A stretch of 64,000 nt of DNA. Origin: Octopus vulgaris (taxonomy: Eukaryota). Shown here in pieces: positions 9,890 to 54,173 of the stretch. The position numbers and the translations under genes were made by a program. The stretch is from positions 29,264,001 to 29,328,000 of the forward strand of contig OX597823.1 in the NCBI GenBank assembly GCA_951406725.2, given 5' to 3'. The number at the start of each line of letters is the position of its first letter. Position 1 is the first letter of the stretch. The notes below the pieces were generated by a model, which worked only from the letters and a program-made list of their open reading frames with translations, was not told the origin of the DNA and searched no databases.

Positions 9890-10325
9890 GGCGGCGAGCT
9901 AGCAGAAACGTTAGCACGCCGGGCGAAATGCGTAGCCGTATTTCGTCTGCCGCTACGTTCTGAGTTCAAATTCCGCCGAGGTCGACTTTGCCTTTCATCC
10001 TTTCGGGGTCGATAAATTAAGTACCAGTTACGCACTGGGGTCGATCTAATCAACTTAATCCCTTTGTCTGTCCTTGTTTGTCCCCTCTATGTTTAGCCCC
10101 TGGTGGGCAATAAAGAAATAAGAAACGTTAGCACAGCGGGCGAAATGCTTAGCAATATTTCGTCTGCCGTTACGTTCTGAGTTCAAACTCTGCCTAGTTC
10201 GAATTTGCCTTTCATCCATTTCGGAGTCGATTAATTAAGTACCAGTTACGCACTGGCGTCGACTTAATCACTTTGTCCTTGTTTGTCCACTCTATATTTA
10301 GTCCGCTGTGGCCAATAAAAAAATA
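9890..10325 (+). mobile_element. tRNA-derived SINE with Meta-like central domain, dimeric
   Basis: GGCGGCGAGCTAGCAGAA head, GAGTTCAAATTC B-box, CCTTTCATCCTTTCGGGGTCGATAAATTAAGTACC domain; second unit from ~10121; ATATTTAATGGA on both flanks (TSD-like). Confidence 0.85.
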
Positions 10326-10507
10326 CATATTTAATGGAGTATTTTGTGGAGGTAAATGTAAAATGAGTTCGAATTGGCATCATAACCGATTAAATATGTT
10401 TCAGTGTTTAGCTGTGTCTCTTTTTCTTTAGATTTTGAATTCTGCCAAATCCTGTTTTGCTAATCATTTTCACAGCATACGTAGTACTTGTAATATTCTG
10501 GTGTCCA

Positions 10508-10697
10508 GGCGGCGAGCTGGCAGAAACGTTAGCACGACGGACGAAATGCTTAGCGTTATGTCGTCAGCCGTTACGTTCTGAGTTCAAATTCCACCGAGGT
10601 CGACTTTGCCTTTCATCCTTTCGGGGCCAATAAATTAAGTACCAGTTACCCACTGGGGTCGATGTAATAGACTTAATATCTTTGTCTGTCCTTGGTT
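10508..10697 (+). mobile_element. Meta-type SINE copy
   Basis: Same head and central domain as 9890. Confidence 0.85.
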
Positions 10698-11605
10698 CGA
10701 AACATATGGTGTACCTACAAAATGTCTAATACGAAATACATCTCCTGTTTTTAATTAATACTATTACTCTAACTGCCACGGCGAAGTTCCTGAAATAAAT
10801 CCACCGAAAGTGTACCATAACTACGGATGACAACAGGTATCCTAAACTGTGCGGTGCTCTACTCAACATTTAAACACACACACACACACACACACACTCA
10901 TACACACACACACACACACACACACACTCATACATATATATATGCGATAAAAAAATTTAATTAGAACTTTGTTTACTTTTTATTTACTAACGGCTCGTTT
11001 AGAAATCCCCACACGACACCATGATATTGCTACACACCACCGGTGAGACGTGTATCTCACCTTGAAAACCATTAGTTCAAACACATACAGGAAAATCAGA
11101 TAAACACAGCGCTAGAAACATAATTTCGTATACAGTTACTATCAGAATCTACACCAAGAATCATTTTCCTGTTAAATGCAAAAGTGTGCAGGCAAAGGAA
11201 AGAAGCAAATGAGATAAAAGTTTAGACGGAAAACAAACGGTTACTCATATAAATGTAACCGAGTAAGTACTCCCTCTTTGTTGATGGCATAAACTTCGTC
11301 GTTAAAGCTTTTCTATTTCTTGACGATCGGGTGGATTAACGTTTACGGGTTCCTTAAGACACAGCAACCATTATCTATGAATGTATTGAAGTCCCGGTTG
11401 ATCACCTTTCTATATATACACTAATTGAAGATTACTTTTATTATGTAGAAAAGATAAGAAATCTTAGTTTTCAACGATACCTCTACCGCGCAAATATCAG
11501 TTCACGTTACGGAAATCGCAAAGGTAACCGATTTTCAGAAATCCTCAAATAAGTGGGAGGCTTCTAAAACCCACATTCTTGAAGTTGAATAGGAGTTATA
11601 AAAAT

Positions 11606-12174
11606 CCTTTCTACTGGAAGCACAAGGCCTCAATTATGGGAGAAGAGATTAAGTCGATTACATCGACCCCAGTGTGTAACTGGTACTTATTTAATCGACC
11701 CCGAAAGGATGAAGGCCGACCCCGGCGAAATTTGAACTTAGAATGTAGCGGCAGACGAAATACCTATTTCTTTACTACGCACAAGGGGCTAAACACAGAG
11801 AGGACAAACAAGGACAGACAAACGGATTAAGTCGATTACATCGATCCCAGTGTGTAACTGGTACTTATTTAATCGACCCCGAAAGGATGAAGGCCGACCC
11901 CGGCGAAATTTGAACTCAGAATGTAGCGGCAGATGAAATATCTATTTCTCTACTACCCACAAGGGGCTAAACACAGAGAGGACAAACAAGGACAGACACA
12001 CGGATTAAGTCGATTATATCGACCCCAGAGCGTAACTGGTACTTATTTAATCGACCCCGAAAGGATGAAAGGCAAAGTCGACCTCGGCGGAATTTGAACT
12101 CAGAACGTAGAGGCAGACGAAATACCTCTAAGCATTTCGCCCGACGTGCTAACGTTTCTGCCAGCTCGCCGCCT
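11606..12174 (-). mobile_element. Meta-type SINE trimer
   Basis: Full head at 12173 followed by two ~180-bp head-truncated tandem units; TAGGAGT.ATAAAA on both flanks. Confidence 0.85.
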
Positions 12175-12214
12175 TAGGAGTAATAAAATAGTGACACTGC
12201 ATCGGCTACTACGA

Positions 12215-13898: not shown

Positions 13899-13947
<49 letters not shown>

Positions 13948-15128
13948 CTTTATTTTAAGCAGCAGAAAAAATCAACAAAATCTGTTACTCTGAGTTTCTC
14001 GTTGCCGTTCATCAGACAGTTTTTGCTAGAATGGAACATATATATTAATTCAATCTATACTCTTACAAACGCTACACCTTTAAAAAGAAATGGACTTGTT
14101 TGATTGGCCCTTTAGAAAAAACGGTCAATCTTCGAGCGATAAACAAAAAGGTCAAAAATATATGTATATATATATAAAAACTTATAAAAATTATAAAATC
14201 CGAGGAAAATACCGAGGAAAAAACCTGTTGCCGTTAATGAAGACAGTACAAATTAATGCATAGAAATTAAACCTGTTATAAATACTGCAATACATATTTA
14301 TATTAAAATTCACATATATATATCAACATACACAAAAGGATGCGCGTAAACGCCATACATACATATACAGACGTATGAATATGAATCTAAATTATACACA
14401 TAAAAGCATGTGTACATATATTCACGCAAACCGTCTCGCACGCAAGCTAAATTTCATCTATGTAGCAATTCTCATATACTGAGCAAGGAGGGGAACGAAA
14501 GAAAGGGAAGAGAGAAAAACGGAGGAGGGGTGGGGAAAAAAATTTGTAGCGATGTTATTTGGCATCTATAGAGGCCTGTATACATACACAAGTTTGAATT
14601 GATACATATACATACCGTCGTGTATATGTGTGCTTAAGCACAAGCATACTTTCACTCACACATACACAGATACGCATGCTTACAAATACATATGCTTTGC
14701 TATACACAAACTTATATAAACATTCTAAATTTGACAACATTGCTTTTTTTATAAAAAAACATTGCTTTTAAAAAATGCATTAATAAAAATATATACGAAG
14801 GACCTATAAAATAAAATATAACATCCTATTTTGGGTCATTTATAAATAATCAAGGTAATATAAATAATCAAGGTAATCTTATGCAATACAATAACATGAA
14901 AACAAAGTTTGTAGGTTTTTCCTAATATATATGTAGAAATAATAAGACTTTGCTATAGGTCCGTTGTAGCGCTCAAGAGTCAAAATCAAAATCAAAAAAT
15001 CAAAATACAAAATATATACTCTATCCATATGGTATATTTATATTCGACATTTTAAATTTAGCCTTGTGCCTACATAAGTTCATTAATTCACTTCTTTGAT
15101 TCAAAGAATTATTGTCTTTGAATAATAT

Positions 15129-15242
15129 ATGCATATATTATTCAAAGACAATAATTCTTTGAATCAAAGAAGTGAATTAATGAACTTATGTAGGCACAAG
15201 GCTAAATTTAAAATGTCGAATATAAATATACCATATGGATAG
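15129..15242 (+). pseudogene. C-terminal fragment of a Penelope-like (Naiad-type) RT/GIY-YIG endonuclease ORF
   Basis: Translates MHILFKDNNSLNQRSELMNLCRHKAKFKMSNINIPYG*. The LNxRSEL-x3-CRH-x2-KF pattern is the typical end of PLE GIY-YIG domains. Mirrored at 15021-15134 on the minus strand. Confidence 0.75.
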
Positions 15243-16248
15243 AGTATATATTTTGTATTTTGATTTTTTGATTTTGATTTTGACTCTTGAGCGCTACAAC
15301 GGACCTATAGCAAAGTCTTATTGTTTCTACATATATATTAGGAAAAACCTACAAACTTTGTTTTCATGTTATTGTATTGCATAAGATTACCTTGATTATT
15401 TATATTACCTTGATTATTTATAAATGATCCAAAATAGGATGTTATATTTTATTTTATAGGTCCTTCGTATATATTTTTATTAATGCATTTTTTAAAAGCA
15501 ATGTTTTTTTATAAAAAAAGCAATGTTGTCAAATTTAGAATGTTTATATAAGTTTGTGTATAGCAAAGCATATGTATTTGTAAGCATGCGTATCTGTGTA
15601 TGTGTGAGTGAAAGTATGCTTGTGCTTAAGCACACATATACACGACGGTATGTATATGTATCAATTCAAACTTGTGTATGTATACAGGCCTCTATAGATG
15701 CCAAATAACATCGCTACAAATTTTTTCCCCACCCCTCCTCCGTTCCTTTTTCTCTCTTTCCCTTTCTTTCGTTCCCCCTCCTTGCTCAGTATATGAGAAT
15801 TGCTACATAGATGAAATTTAGCTTGCGTGCGAGACGGTTTGCGTGAATATATGTACACATGCTTTTATGTGTATAATTTAGATTCATATTCATACGTCTG
15901 TATATGTATGTATGGCGTTTACGCGCATCCTTTTGTGTATGTTGATATATATATGTGAATTTTAATATAAATATGTATTGCAGTATTTATAACAGGTTTA
16001 ATTTCTATGCATTAATTTGTACTGTCTTCATTAACGGCAACAGGTTTTTTCCTCGGTATTTTCCTCGGATTTTATAATTTTTATAAGTTTTTATATATAT
16101 ATACATATATTTTTGACCTTTTTGTTTATCGCTCGAAGATTGACCGTTTTTTCTAAAGGGCCAATCAAACAAGTCCATTTCTTTTTAAAGGTGTAGCGTT
16201 TGTAAGAGTATAGATTGAATTAATATATATGTTCCATTCTAGCAAAAA

Positions 16249-16286
16249 CTGTCTGATGAACGGCAACGAGAAACTCAGAGTAACAG
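16249..16286 (+). ncRNA. Minimal type-I hammerhead ribozyme
   Basis: ctgt-CTGATGA-a-CG-gcaa-CG-a-GAAAC-T-cag-A-GTA-acag; stem I ctgt/acag; predicted cleavage after A16282. Mirror copy at ~13981-14018(-). Confidence 0.7.
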
Positions 16287-16389
16287 ATTTTGTTGATTTT
16301 TCTGCTGCTTAAAATAAAGCATATTACTCTACCACTGGTATTTGAGTACTCTTTTTTCCACCTTGTTTCACATTTATGTGTTTACTCCG

Positions 16390-16433
<44 letters not shown>

Positions 16434-16532
16434 GAGTGTTGTAGTTCGCTTGAAGCATTATGTACTCTTTATAAAGAATAAAAAGTTTTGAATGGTACAA
16501 CAATGCATTATAATACAAACAATGGGCTATAT

Positions 16533-16803
16533 ACCTGTTATAATTTATTCATCCATAGCCTGATAATATTTCGGAATAAAATTCTTTCTACAATTATTTT
16601 TATATGAAGTCGCTGCTGTAATCAGTTTTCCAACGGCATTTCCTTTCTTTTTATTTCGGAAGACGCTTACGAAAAAAAAAAAAAAAAAATGAAAAGCCGT
16701 TGGAAAACCGATTATAGCAGCGACTCCATCTAAAAATATATCTGAAGAAGGAATTTTATTCCGAAATATTATCAGGCTATGGATGACTAAATTACAACAA
16801 GTA
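16533..16803. mobile_element. Fold-back MITE with ~110-bp imperfect TIRs
   Basis: CATCCATAGCCTGATAATATTTCGGAATAAAATTC is inverted at ~16752-16786; arms are symmetric, with no tail. Confidence 0.7.
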
Positions 16804-16849
16804 CATACATGCATACATACATACATACATACATACATACATACATACA

Positions 16850-17113: not shown

Positions 17114-18328
17114 GGGGGTCTATATTATTATTTCAGTGAAAACATATTTTGAATATTCTATTGGGTTCTGAGATGTTGACATTAAGAGTTTTTTCTATGT
17201 TTCCTTTTTCTTTAGGTTCGCAAGAAGAGTTATTGTTGACTGATCTTAGTTGAGATTTGATCAAATGTGGGAATTGCTGATCACTTTAGTAAGGCGCATT
17301 AAGCATTCGATTCATTGGCTAAGCGAAACAAGAACGCAGAATCGGACAGAAGAACGTTACACTTTCTATTGGATGAAAATGTGATTTTCACCAAATTGTA
17401 TCATCTCGTAAACCAACAACTCTTTGTTTGTTTGTTTGTTTCAATTTCTACAGTCTAGTCATTGGTTATTAAACCCGTTTTCACCTTATTTCACAGCTTG
17501 GCGGACTCGTCAGTCGAGAAATAACAATAAAATGTCTTAACCATGAACACAGCTCAAATTATTTGAAACTATCGAACGCTTCTTTATAAACTCGTTCCCT
17601 GCTTCGAAAGAAGAGCACACATTACACAATAAATAAATATAAATAAATATAATTACATAAATATATGGTAGCACAAATGGATAAAAACATTAGCTGTTTT
17701 AATTAACTATATTTATTGTAATGGTTGACTCAATCTATTTCACTGTATTAATTTTCTTTTATATCGATATTTTACCCGTCTTTCTATACAAGATCTGGTC
17801 CAGTGATATAAAACGGCTAAATTCAATTATTCTTTATGTTTATAAATGCTGGAACTTTTCACTTTTTTCTTTCCGATAATGTTTGATTTTTTGTTTGTTT
17901 GCTTTATTATTTTTTTTGGGGGGGGGGGGTACGAAATTTGAAATACGTTTTTCTCCTTTACTTGTCTTATGTTTTTTTTTTCTTTTTTACTTTTATTTAT
18001 CTATACAATATTTCCAATGACCCTTTATTCCCCTGAGGAATTATAAATGTTCACATTAGAATATTGTTAAACGGAGTGAAATAAATCCGTTAAATATATC
18101 TCTCTCACTTAGCAACGAGATTTCAAACTTAGTTCTACTAATCGAAATTGTTCTTTCGATAATTTAAGTGACCTACTGAACTCGTACATTTACTTTCTAT
18201 TCAAATTCATTGTCTTTTCACTGGTTTCAATCATTGCATTGTTGTCACGCTGGGGTACTGCTTTCAAATCGACCGTAATAATTCCTTCTCGTACATAATT
18301 TTATTGCTCAATATTGACTGGAATCTAA

Positions 18329-18607
18329 GGCGGCGAGCTGGCTTAAAAGTTAGCACGTCGGGCGAAATGCTTAGCGGTATTTCGTCCACCGCTGCGTTCT
18401 GAGTTCAAATTCCGCCGAGGTCGACTTTGCTTTTCATCCTTTCAGGGTCGATTAAATAAGTACCAGTTACGCACTGAGGTCGATATAATCGACTTAATCC
18501 GTTTGTCTGTTCTTGATTGTCCTCTCTGTGTTTAGCCCCTTGTGGGTAGTAAAGAAATAGGTATTTCGTCTGCCGTTACATTCTGAGTTCAAATTCCGCC
18601 GAGGTCG
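18329..18607 (+). mobile_element. Meta-type SINE with partial second unit
   Basis: Family consensus; junction AAAGAAATAG|GTATTTCGTC at ~18560. Confidence 0.85.
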
Positions 18608-19077
18608 ATGATGATGAAAAACGATTTTATCCAAATCCCTCTTTAGCTCCCAAAGGATTTCGTAGATAATCGGCCACTTTAGGTAGAAATTCAGTTGATT
18701 AAACAACCGAAAGCTTTTTTGTCAGGAAATTCCGAACGAAATCCATTTAATAGTTATTAACGGCTTGACCTAATGGTTGGGGTGTTAGGCTCACGATCAT
18801 AAGACCGAGAGCTCGATTCCTAACCCGGACAGCACGCTGTGTCTTTGACCAAGGTATTTCATTATAACTAGCCTAGTGCTGGTGCGGTCCTTTCTTCTAT
18901 AAGCTGTTACATCGTCAATATTCTGTTGGGTCAGGGGTTGCAAGAGCCAAGAAGGTATCTACGCCTGTTCGCGACTATATGGGCACCTAAACCAATTGAG
19001 AAAACATGGTACACCTAAATTCATACACGCTTCTCAGTGTCAGCTACAACAATAATGAGTATTTTTGGCTATCGTGG

Positions 19078-27683: not shown

Positions 27684-28800
27684 TTTCATTTATTTTCCAC
27701 CAGGGAGAAAGATGAGAACAATACAAAGTCAGATGCAAAGTGTGGGGTTTACATATAATGAAATGATAAGAAAGGTTTTTAATTAAGAAAAAAAATAGAG
27801 TAAGTGTACACGGTGTACAATGAAAAAGATGGGAAATATACATGGTATACAAAGATAAAAAGAGTGGGGAGAAGCAAGTGATGTAGTCATCCTGGTACAA
27901 GATGACCTCAAAGGATAATAGTGAAACCCCACCGTCCAAGATTTCCCTGAACAACAAGGGTAAGTGCCCTCTCCAATTCCCTTTCTCCGACTCACAGGCC
28001 CACACTTAAGGAGGTACCATCCTCTCTTGCCATTTTCGCAACTCCCACTTACCTTTCAATAAACTCATTCGAGAACACCACTTCCCTTTCCACCCTCAAT
28101 TTTCTGTACCAGTGAAACTTTAAAAAGTCGTTGAGGCCGCCACCGAGGAGAAATGTATTTGTCCTCATGCCTTACAACCTCCTCCATCATACATTCTCTT
28201 TCGCCACAGCCACCAGACAAAGGAAAACCGCCTTGCCTGCCCGATTAAAGGAAGGTAGTGAGGCAATCATCGCTATGGACTAGGCCGTTAGACAGATCCG
28301 TCACGCACGTGATACTAGCTGTTTGACATAACCCCACAGGTCAGAAATGCCAGCACACTGAACGAGAGCGTGCAGAGCAGTTTTGTCACTCTGTGCAGAC
28401 CTCGGTCAAGCCCGTCTGGTTTCACATCCCTGCCTGTAGAGTTTATCTCGAACCGATAGCGCCCCCGATAATACTGCCAAGCCAAGGGCATCCGGAAATT
28501 ATCCATGACAGTTCCCGACCGGAAAATCCTCCGGAACAGACTAGCAAGTTCGTTTTCGTCGACGCCCAGTGTCTCCCCGAGAACGTCATCGCACTTCCCT
28601 GCCAATAACCCTCTATAAATTGCTAGAGCGGAGCATCCACCGCTCTCATTGCCCGACTAGTAGAGGGCCGTGAGCGTCTGACTACATTCTAGGTGCCAGG
28701 CACCCAGTCTCGATTTTTTTCTTCACCCAGGACTGCAGCTCCGTCAAGGAGACGAGCTGCGGAAAGACGCTTACCATCCAGAAATCGTTGCAGTGAGCAA
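27684..28800 (-). mobile_element. Tx1-clade LINE 3' end (C-terminal ORF2 plus 3' UTR)
   Basis: Homologous to 51960-52400 (ORF 28315-28605 LAWQYYRG vs LAWQCHRE); ends in an AATAAA-containing terminus. Confidence 0.75.
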
Positions 28801-43799: not shown

Positions 43800-44294
<495 letters not shown>

Positions 44295-49559: not shown

Positions 49560-51957
49560 GATAGATAGATAGAGAAAGCACGATTTATTCGTGACCAGAG
49601 GCGTTCGTGAACCGAGGTACTACTGTATTTATAATCATTTCTGATAATGACAAAATGGGTTGGTCGAGTGTATTGACCAAATTATTTACATATTCTATCG
49701 ACCCTGGAAGGGCGAAAACGGTCGTGACAGAAGTTAAGAATGTAAAGATGTAACTAAAACCACAAAATATTTCGTCCGCTGCTCTACCGATTTTGAAAGT
49801 CCTACAGCACTGTGTACAACGACGGCAACAACAACAGCAATAATATAACTTTGTAGCTTCTTTTCAAGACAAATCTAAGAAAATATTTTTATTGACAACA
49901 AAACCTTCTAAGAACACGTCCATGTTTTTTATCTCAGCATACTTCAGAGATTTTTGGAAAAATTTATTTTCTCCTCAATACCGATAACTGTCGCTGATAA
50001 TCTCGTGTGATGAAAATCCTGTATGTATTCGCTTGACCTGCTAGAAATAGCGATCAAATATCTTTCTATCGCATCCTACCATTGTTGTCTTACCTAAACT
50101 ACGACACATTATGCAACTTAGTTTCTGATATGCTGTGACAAGGTGGTCACTGTCTCTAGTCACAGGCCTGCCCGTACCGAACTAGCGCCAGGTTAAACAG
50201 CGACAGCAACTGTAAAAACGACAACAACATGTTCTTTAAAAAGATGAAATACGCAGAGCAGAGATGTCACAGCAGAAACATTCTACGTTCAGATTAGTGT
50301 CGGATCAGTTAAAAGCTGATGTCATTCAAATAAATTAAATAAAACAGACAGAAAACTTACAAAGATTTTCTTTTTTTTCTCTTGCCTAATTTGCATCAAC
50401 TTTAAGCTGATTCGACAAAACGAATGTATTCGTTGTTGTTTTATATTTTATTCTCTAACTATACACTGTCAAAGGCCCCTTCCGTTCTTCATCAAATGCT
50501 AAGTTATCATCTGACAGTAGGCCTGCATTTCATTATTATTGATTACTGACCTCTCTAGAAACTATGAACGCATAAATTTTGGCTTTTGTGTTAGTTATCT
50601 TAGAAATAGCAAGCAAATAAATAATTGTATTATGAAGATCTCCAAAACAGATCAAAACGAAAAGAGTAAAACAAAGCAAAACAAGGGGTGAATAATTAAG
50701 TTTGGGTTGTAATGAAGAGGCAGAGGGAAAAGTTCATTGTTTTGGACTGTGTTCCTTTGTCGAAAACAAAGAGAAAAAGTAAGGGAAAATGAGGTTTTCA
50801 GTAACGGTTCTATGGCAGTCAAAGTATGTCGGAAAAGTATTACATAATTATGTAAATGATGTAATATGGAATTTTCTTTCAGAAATTTGTTATGGTTACA
50901 AAATAACAGTAACGTGTTTTCTACACGTTATGCTCAAATATTTCTGCAGTCAGCGAATTCAGTTAAAGAATGTTATATGAGAAAAAACAACCAGCGGAGC
51001 CTTCTTTCAGCCTCCAGTCAATAATATACGTGCCACACCAATGATCTAAAAGTATGAAGAGCACATCAGATAACGTTGTCCTCGGTACACAGTATCTAAA
51101 AATAAAAACAATATGACAGCAGGCGTAAATTAATCAAACTTACGTTTCCTCGAAAATGTTTGATCTGGAACCGACAACAAAACAGGAAATACTTTTCACA
51201 ATGTTCTATATCATGTATTTGCTAATATAATTTGATATATTTCGCGAGCATTTTACAGTATATTGAGAGCCATACAAATCATAATACATGCGGACGAATT
51301 ATTTCTGGTTATCACGGTTTGGCCTGTTATTAAGTACTAATCACGGGGCCTCAGAGAGTGGCACTTGTGTTGTACAAGTGTTTGCCGCCATAGTCCAGTA
51401 ACGTACATTAGTCTCTTTAGGGTAACCTCATTTGTCATTCCATCAAACGAAAGTGGAAGAGTGGCAACGTGTGTAGACCTAACCAGTTGGAAGCGCACAG
51501 TAAGTTAAACCTTTCAGCTGTCACTTATGCTTCAAACCATACAGATCTGCAACGGACCTAAATAGATTTCTGAGAAGTCAGAATACCATTGACACGGAAA
51601 TACATGGGGAGGACAATCATCTGTGCAGAGAAAGAAACCACCACATATATAGAGTGTGAGTGTGTTTGTGTATAACAACCGGGGTTCGTTTCATATGCCC
51701 CCTCCAGTTAGGGGCTCAATAATAAGCAACCATTGAATTAATACGAGAGATTAATTTGTTCGACTGATTCCTTGAAGACAATGCTCGAGTGTGGCCGCAG
51801 TCGCCAGATGTTTGGTTAAGTTATATTGTAAAAGAGCATACAATCACACATATGTATATAATTGTGAGTATGTATGTGTAGGTGCAGTGTGTACGCATGC
51901 TTGAATGTGTTTTGTCTGTTTGTATATACATTTTGCGTTGATACCGCGTAAAACGAA

Positions 51958-54173
51958 TGGATCTCTGCTTTAACTCCGTAAGATGGCGGAGCAATTTTCA
52001 CAATAGACTCGACCGACAGGTGGACTCGTCCCACACGTGACAGCTTATCCCGAACAGGTAATGCTTCTCGATGGCACTGCCAGGCCAGGGATCTTTGGTG
52101 ATTGTCCATAGGTCCCGGCCAGAAAGTTGTCCTGAACAGGCGGATCAGGTGTTCCTCGTCGATGCTCAGATTCTGCCTGAGAACGTCGTCGCACCTCCTC
52201 TCCACTAATCCTCTATAGAACGCCTTTGTTGTAATGAAGTCGCACAAGTTTGGTCCCGGATGGCAGAGTTGCTTGAGATCAACGCGACACTCGCTGTGCC
52301 ATTAGCCTAGCCTCGGTCTCTGTTTGATCCACGACTGTAATTCGGCGAAGGAGACGAACTGCGGGAAACCGCGCCGCACAAACGGCGACCACACCTATTC
52401 ACTGTCGTCTATGAAGCGCCGGTGATGTCGCAGTCTTAGTGCATGTTTGCGCATCATCAACCACGGCATGGCTAGCCCTCCATTTAGCGGGTGTTGACAG
52501 CAAACGGATCGCCTAACCATCGGAACGCTTCCCTTCCACAAAAAGCGAAAGAGTATGCTTTCCAGTTTGGTGATGGTAGGGTCGGAACAAGGCACGACGA
52601 TCAGACGGTATTCGATGCTGGGTGCAATGTACGCGTTCGCTACCTCCGCCCGACCTTTTAGGAATAGCTTCCTCTCAGCCCTTAGTCATTATTTCACCCC
52701 AGTACTTCTCCATTTGGAGGTCCGTACTGAAACAGATTCCGAGCAATTTAACCGGTCCGTCGGTCGAGTGTCCCACGATGGAGATGCTGTTGGACGGCAT
52801 GGGCTTGCTTCTCCAGGTGCCGAGCCACAAGCCCACTGACTTTTCAAATTTAATTTTTGCTCCCGTTACCGCTTCGTATTCTTTTAGTGTCTCGCCGACT
52901 AGGTCGATGTTCTTGTGACTCGACACTATGATGGTGACGTCGTCCGCGTATGCAGACACGCTCCTCCCGCATCCCAGCTCTCGTGGGATGCCCCTCAGCG
53001 TCGCAAGCTTCCGCAGTAGTGGCTCAATACATACAGAAGCGACGAGAAGAGGCATCCATGACGAACCGAACGCATGATAATAAATGGTCTGAATAGATGA
53101 CCATTTACGCGACTACCGAGCGGATGCCGCTGTATAAGGCAGCGATCCAACAGCGGAAGATGGAACCGAAACTTGCCGCTTTAAGGACATCCTCCAAATA
53201 GTGATGGTCTACCCTATCGAAAGCTTTTGATTGATCCAAATTTATCAGCGCCCTACTCATACCAGGATCCTTAACTACCCTGTCTATGATGTAGCGCATC
53301 AGATGGAGATTGTCATTGATACTGCTACCCGGCACGGTGCACGTTTGCGCCTTGTCGACTAGTTTCTCAATGACAAGCGCCAATCTCTCGCAAGCACCTT
53401 AGCCAAAATTTTCAAATCTGCGTTGAATAGAGTGATGGGCCTAAAGTTATCTATGACGTTCCCCTTGTTTGGATCTTTCCTTAGCAGTGTCATTACTCTT
53501 TGCTTTACAAAGACGGCGATACTTCCGTTTTGCTGCCAGTTGCAGTAGACAGCTGCCAAGACGCCTCCAAACAAGTCTGGCATATGACAATAAAGTTCGT
53601 AGGGAAGACCATCCAAGCCTGGTGACTTGTCTATCGCGCAACCTGCCATCGCATCCCGTACGTCCGCGGCTGTGATGGGTCTTTCACAACACTCCGCCTC
53701 TCTTGCTGAGAGTCGTGGTAGGCCATGCAGGTAGGCACTAAAGTCCACTCTTCGTTCTAACCCACCAATTGTCCCAAACAGTCGGGCAAAGTGTTGTTGA
53801 AAGACCTCACACATCCTTTCAGGTTCGAGTAATTCGCGCCCTTGTTCATCTGTAGGTGACCTAATGGTGGCTCTGTTGCCTCGTTGTGCCTCCGCCACTC
53901 GGGCCTATTGGGCGGCTGCAACTCCTTCGTTCCTCAGAGCACGCATCCTAGCTCTGACAACGCATCCTTTGTGTTTGGGGTTGAAGTGTCGGTCGAGGGC
54001 CAACCTCACTGCCAGTACGTTGGACGCGATGCCAGTTCTAAATGCCTCTTCTAATTTCTCAACTAAGTCTCTCTCTATTCTATTTCGATACCCGTCAATG
54101 CTCTCTTAACGGATGTGCTAATCCAGTCCCTGTAAGCCTGGCGTGCCCTGAACGACGCGTTCGCGACACGCCT
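51958..54173 (-). pseudogene. Tx1/L1-clade LINE ORF2 (reverse transcriptase) fragment, frameshifted
   Basis: KSPGLDGLPYELY, NFRPITLFNADLKILAKVLA, LINLDQSKAFDRVDH, SAYADDVT, FLWKG..GGLAMP across ORFs 53359-53898, 53105-53383, 52675-53055 and 52395-52595. Confidence 0.92.

Follow-up and report, generated by a model that had tools for sequence, protein, structure and literature searches.

A kilobase zero-spacer palindrome in Octopus vulgaris and the inverted tail/tail-less insertions of its PLE family

The DNA analysed here, called the window, covers 64,000 nt of contig OX597823.1 of Octopus vulgaris (assembly GCA_951406725.2) and contains a palindrome of 2.37 kb. This palindrome is one 5′-truncated insertion of a young Penelope-like element (PLE), assigned by its motifs to the Hydra clade, into a (TA)n microsatellite. 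One arm bears a tail and the other does not, and this inverted tail/tail-less layout is a routine product of the family. The two arms in the window were probably copied from one RNA as separate target-primed cDNAs and then joined through microhomology at the word ATGCAT. For the family, an ordered two-site twin priming is tentatively proposed, its chances falling just short of even: an element dimer would use both target ends as primers on the same RNA, always one at the tail end and the other 73 nt upstream, and would have left a few thousand tail-asymmetric (near-)palindromes per genome.

The palindrome and its surroundings

Global alignment and a repeat finder place the left arm at 13948–15131 (1184 nt, minus strand) and the right arm at 15132–16319 (1188 nt, plus strand), with a spacer of 0 nt and the centre ATG/CAT. 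In the global alignment, the arms differ by two substitutions (14835/15428 and 14940/15323) and by five indels, at 13966, 14490, 14508, 14518 (4 nt) and 14536. The original prediction of a spacerless near-perfect palindrome with arms of ~1.18 kb is thereby borne out; it listed arm differences near 14940/15323 and 14510–14530 and had overlooked those at 14835 and 13966. The left arm is a tail-less, 5′-truncated and inverted PLE 3′ end that stops at the family's fixed tail-less terminus (13948). The right arm comprises an ORF remnant and ~1.08 kb of 3′ UTR, and the 73-nt tail (16320–16392, plus strand) is present beside it only, as had been noticed. The last 37 codons and the stop of the PLE ORF (15129–15242, plus strand, mirrored on the minus strand) correspond to the C-terminus of the putative GIY-YIG endonuclease and contain LNQRSELMNLCRH. 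The peptide, MHILFKDNNSLNQRSELMNLCRHKAKFKMSNINIPYG followed by the stop, matches the C-terminal end of the intact family ORF without a single difference. Both the origin from a PLE 3′ end and the position of the axis within the endonuclease C-terminus, where the ORF remnant begins at 15129, agree with what was predicted. The self-complementary ATGCAT at the axis (15129–15134) is native to the element and common to both arms, a microhomology of 6 nt.

The flanks, (CA)n(TA)14 on the left and (TA)19 on the right, are not mirrored. They are the two sides of the target microsatellite (13919–13947, preceded by (CA)n, and 16393–16431), inside which a target-site duplication is not readable. The 30-nt centre junction occurs a single time in the 2.8-Gb assembly. 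The copy is dead, as it contains no reverse transcriptase, and no function is indicated; the ORF list alone identifies no host gene around the insertion. The window palindrome is the sole exact zero-spacer palindrome among the long loci examined and thus the extreme of a continuum. Kilobase near-palindromes occur elsewhere, such as L088 with arms of 1.3 kb and a 10-nt spacer, and only the combination of kilobase arms with zero spacer is unusual.

Each arm contains the predicted hammerhead motif, recognized by sequence and comparison of layouts: a type I motif at 16249–16286 (plus strand) with a predicted cut after 16282, and its mirror copy at 13982–14019 (minus strand). The putative ribozyme reads CTGT-CTGATGA-A-CG-GCAA-CG-A-GAA-ACTC-A-GAGT-A-ACAG, with a stem II of 2 bp, and the predicted extended stem I has a CTAG (16239–16242) at its 5′ foot. 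Its core and layout resemble those of Hydra-2_aMil in the accessible part of the PMC8557442 supplement. An Rfam search gives no hammerhead match, only hairpin-type miRNA matches below threshold, and the energy model predicts no hammerhead fold for the monomer. PLE hammerheads are described as dimeric and weakly active, with opposite-strand pairs 100–700 bp apart in Schistosoma (PMC4209133, in the portion available). The element exists as a young and an older subfamily; the core is the canonical CTGATGA in the young one (149 identical copies) and CCGATGA in the older one (L200, L191 and other older copies).

Other repeats surround the insertion. A 360-bp palindrome at 1804–2250 represents a different family, unrelated to the first. 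It is flanked by (TA)n, bears a tail of ~75 nt on one side only and contains a hammerhead-like motif of its own (CTGAAGAT core). When the genome was searched, tailed arms ended at query positions 254–261, and of 31 rows for inverted arms 20 stopped at 177; this second hammerhead-bearing family shows the same tail/tail-less layout. A solo tailed stub of the older subfamily of the PLE (79 nt plus tail, core CCGATGG) lies within long (TA)n arrays at 44034–44185. To the right of the insertion, at 16528–16807, is an 84% inverted repeat with core arms of 77 nt and a 126-nt spacer around an A-run. SINE-like repeats occur at 10000–12180 and 18325–18610, dispersed and as 178-bp tandem copies in both orientations. 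Two minus-strand segments with RT-like motifs (51816–53904 and 28315–28656) are presumably broken ORF pieces of non-LTR retrotransposons.

The element family and its two termini

The right arm matches many genomic loci at 98–99% (40 of 1,764 candidates scored). Twenty such loci, fetched at 9.9 kb, contain long ORFs that end in the window peptide, several of them intact. The full unit measures 3,356 nt and its intact ORF encodes 711 aa (protein P0001), with 1,760 homologues among 7,994 candidates scored. Pfam profile and PDB sequence searches with P0001 found nothing. The ORF is single and its product a telomerase-like reverse transcriptase: the predicted structure has a pLDDT of 84, and its six best Foldseek matches are all telomerases (E 1e-8 to 6e-8). 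As a candidate C-terminal GIY-YIG endonuclease, a GVVY...YTG motif with conserved R, E and N aligns across 14 homologues; one of the homologues carries PF01541, and P0001 itself has no direct profile match.

Other motifs argue for the Hydra clade as defined in the accessible part of PMC8557442. P0001 contains RWK near its N-terminus (RRLRWKAFF) and DKT in place of DKG (NSDKTRN). Its putative endonuclease is devoid of CCHH, with no cysteine between GVVY and YTG, and has CRLC ahead of the conserved E and CRH behind the N (CxxC and CxH). The linker CxCX5C reads CNCKNESSC in 23 of 51 family copies and CNFKNESSC in the other 28. (TA)n targets are found across the sampled family ends, and pseudo-LTR partial tandems occur in L033, L043, L048 and L091; in tandem copies, the tail continues into the 5′ UTR, with the start codon 65 nt beyond. 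Inverted 5′-truncated copies with a one-sided tail constitute most sampled loci. Families of the clade as described there, among them Hydra-1_Obim and Penelope-13_HM, are alike in RWK, DKT, absence of CCHH, CxCX5C and CxxC/CxH, as well as in a canonical hammerhead motif and (TA)n targets, and Penelope-13_HM also has a 5′-truncated inverted copy. In contrast, the present unit, with its long 3′ UTR, exceeds the <3 kb of most Hydra families listed in PMC8557442, and its tail is 73 nt instead of 30–40. The hammerhead with its 2-bp stem II is unlike that of Hydra-1_oBim in the published descriptions accessible, and this is therefore another family.

The two fixed 3′ termini of the family, tailed and tail-less, lie 73 nt apart. 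Beside (TA)n, the tail-less terminus has 1,708 exact matches genome-wide, and a variant shifted by +1 has 17. The tailed terminus has 2,595 matches on the forward strand and ~5,000 in total, an approximate figure as reverse-strand rows are double-counted. The layouts were read at sampled loci from one contig, anchored on exact patterns and hence biased to the young subfamily. Of the 100 tail-less ends that head the list, all of them from contig C1, 22 stand alone and 73 are accompanied by an inverted tailed arm; four others have a partner end that is cut or outside the stretch, and one has a 10-nt tail-less stub (L072, L084, L148 and L149 were re-read by eye). Solo tail-less ends reach nearly full length (L094). 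The first 100 listed rows of tailed ends hold 68 distinct ends, 19 paired by coordinates and 49 fetched. An inverted tail-less arm accompanies 53 of the 68, another inverted piece accompanies one, and 14 have none; in 34 of the 49 fetched, the tail-less arm is of the older variant, two being recognized from the flank only. Not one of the 68 tailed ends belongs to a tail-plus-tail unit. Extrapolation of 53/68 to ~5,000 tailed ends gives a few thousand inverted units in the genome. Thus, the rarity implied in the original prediction was overstated, inversion being the usual product of the family. Inverted truncated copies, one-sided tails and junction palindromes are in themselves published PLE features (PMC8557442 and PMC3846280, in the parts accessible).

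Most inverted units are 110–300 nt long, and 138 exact zero-spacer palindromes share a single CTAG as their centre, located 80 nt upstream from the tail-less end. A strong, family-wide truncation hotspot affects both arms 75–85 nt upstream of the tail-less end (16234–16244 in the window). Located at the foot of the predicted extended stem I, it may reflect an RNA 5′ end or a stop of the reverse transcriptase. Two units depart from the common layout. L072 is a single tail-less plus tail-less unit, and in L190 the inverted arm consists of 5′ UTR and ORF start (387 nt) adjoining a tail-only arm, which breaks the rule of a fixed tail-less end. The same or neighbouring (TA)n tracts are hit repeatedly by the family (L148/L149, L056/L200, L176 and L191).

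Origin of the two arms

Each strand entering from a flank is antisense to the element, the left one from the tail-less site and the right one from the tail end, as target-primed cDNA would be. In the proposed course, the element endonuclease would cut the TA repeat on both strands. Reverse transcription would then be primed from each of the two DNA ends, in one case at the tail end and in the other at the tail-less site, 73 nt apart, and the trailing enzyme would displace the leading cDNA. Both cDNAs would run out close to a shared 5′ break in the RNA, and their antisense 3′ ends would anneal through microhomology before being filled in; where both end at a self-complementary word, a perfect palindrome would arise. 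We infer all steps from cut to product, including displacement and joining, from genomic end products. Part of this course has a biochemical counterpart in the Poseidon PLE PAc of Anolis, predicted to be a dimer, in which both strands are cut and extended in vitro from two start sites that bound the tail (PMC11167929, in the part available). The targets are AT-rich, as here. However, no difference in start site between the strands was observed in vitro, whereas two cDNAs of the present kind require an ordered use of two sites. The PAc tail lies inside the ORF, and here the tail ends 65 nt before the start codon; in its accessible part, the PAc study leaves the two start sites unlinked to the two arms of inverted insertions. 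Double copying of one RNA stretch by displacement is shown for no PLE in the portions of the literature surveyed.

The counts that bear on the mechanism rest on about 150 sampled copies. Among 75 inverted loci, one arm is longer in 37 and the other in 28, with 10 equal; at the cleanly anchored junctions (n = 69), the numbers are 33, 26 and 10 equal. Where the asymmetry is at least 20 nt, the tail-less arm is longer at 16 loci and the tailed arm at 16. Arm lengths are nevertheless coupled, both being short or both long at 72 of 74 loci (Fisher p 3e-18), and among long pairs 3 of 25 end within 20 nt of each other, against 0.47 expected (p 0.01). Since tailed and tail-less ends pair almost strictly, the two sides cannot have chosen their start sites independently.

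The strongest competitor is fold-back or self-priming, which the original prediction had put forward. A cDNA or antisense RNA would fold at its truncated end and be copied into the second arm, the tail-less end would come from endonuclease resolution, and asymmetric spacers from a hairpin opened off centre. PLE junction palindromes have been interpreted in print as products of self-priming (PMC3846280), and endonuclease resolution is a published suggestion for the tail (PMC8557442), both in the parts accessible. Fold-back accounts directly for matched arm lengths and for shared alleles, yet it is doubtful as the main route. Either arm can be the longer, and no folding of the tailed strand can make the tail-less arm longer; that arm nevertheless exceeds the tailed one as often as the reverse, also in very young copies such as L092, with an asymmetry of 1,021 nt and three differences in 1,188 columns. 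Folding of the tail-less strand, for its part, cannot add a tail. The 22 tail-less ends that stand alone also speak against it and show that an insertion can begin at the tail-less site with no tailed arm involved.

The junctions point in the same direction. CTAG, ATTAAT or GC lies at the centre of nine of the ten pairs with arms of equal length, and ATGCAT at that of the window palindrome. As hairpin stems, the centre words would provide 1–3 bp, and as a duplex of two identical ends 2–6 bp; for the CTAG centres (138 loci) and ATGCAT, this means an intramolecular stem of 1–2 bp against a two-end duplex of 4–6 bp. Microhomology at 48 insert-free junctions averages 1.67 nt versus 0.72 nt simulated, and without the exact palindromes 1.13 versus 0.69 nt (n = 39, p 0.004). 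Junction inserts may in part be templated: 8 of 13 match at least 8 nt within 60 nt of a breakpoint, a weak test since some inserts are alignment gaps and the null is not clean.

Sequence divergence indicates a common source for both arms. In 25 of 31 pairs, an arm has its partner as the closest copy; in the other 6, an outside copy is closer. The window arms share alleles present in 0, 1 and 4 of 78 other long arms, the rarest of which is not private once shorter arms are counted, and their differences are private or common only to a distant subfamily. An origin of the arms from two different source elements is rejected on the basis of the shared rare alleles and the 25 of 31 pairs. The shared alleles also fit fold-back, two RNAs of one source locus, or later conversion between arms.

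Two further explanations fare worse. One-pass copying from the transcript of a pre-existing palindrome, a self-propagating non-autonomous unit, would explain why identical 235-nt palindromes recur, with 138 exact CTAG centres, and why one near-palindromic junction is common to 4 of 75 sampled loci. It is improbable, as the window junction is unique in the assembly and most sampled junctions differ from each other. CTAG-type junctions, moreover, occur in the old (L200 and L191) as well as in the young subfamily (L056 and others), which indicates a recurrent hotspot. A sequencing or assembly artefact, either a fold-back read chimera or a mirrored collapse, is very improbable: several of the arm differences resemble consensus errors, being private indels in homopolymer-rich tracts, but the flanks are unmirrored, the right arm bears the tail, the same layout is found at most sampled loci and the centre is a native self-complementary word like those of nine other exact palindromes. 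A chimera would show a mirrored flank; the left arm instead breaks off at the family's biological terminus, found at 1,708 loci. The original prediction was right to set a simple read chimera aside. Logan contigs of four DNA runs show deep coverage of the family and list no piece bridging the axis, a neutral result since contigs are not expected to resolve the centre of a palindrome.

The two-cDNA reading resembles the LINE-1 case. In LINE-1 twin priming, both target ends prime one RNA and the cDNAs join by microhomology, which generates a 5′ inversion. L1 inversions consist of non-overlapping pieces primed at variable internal sites; the arms here, in contrast, are overlapping duplicates from one fixed second site, hence the palindromes. 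Closer relatives are the inverted PLEs of Adineta vaga, which are alike in the head-to-head copy, the tail at one end and the microhomology at the 5′ junction (PMC3846280, accessible part). Their junction palindromes measure 18–38 bp versus up to 2.37 kb here, and self-priming was read from few copies, whereas ~150 loci of one family here favour two cDNAs.

Double-stranded RNA and significance

For the window palindrome, the original prediction expected dsRNA that would be a likely substrate for ADAR or small RNAs; a role of such stubs in dsRNA formation and editing is plausible only. In octopus, high hyper-editing and dsRNA potential are described, and in frog one palindromic repeat is heavily edited (PMC5625713, in the part available). 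Family sequence is present in assembled contigs of four runs guessed to be RNA, and these contigs are not assignable to the window locus. Their A>G differences from the window at 15263, 15298, 15720, 15958 and 16222 are in the genomic allele table, that at 16287 is present in old-subfamily loci, and that at 16212 is not among the 116 genomic arms examined. As the differences are mostly genomic alleles, no claim of editing is made.

Taken by itself, the window palindrome is inert debris of a retrotransposon and of a kind already published. It is valuable as an entry to a young and abundant family with countable end products, whose counts discriminate self-priming from two-ended priming and offer a direct biochemical test. 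The origin of the tandem and inverted structures of PLEs is named as open in the accessible part of PMC8557442. The two-site model was not found in the PLE and palindrome literature searched, subscription papers and supplements possibly excepted, and the counted asymmetry together with the two-site reading may be what is new here. If true, two-site twin priming would tie tail, inversion and junction palindrome to one mechanism. A few thousand inverted units may bear on genome stability and on the dsRNA potential of the octopus and, should the two-site reading hold, much of the long dsRNA that underlies the high level of RNA editing in cephalopods could come from such stubs.
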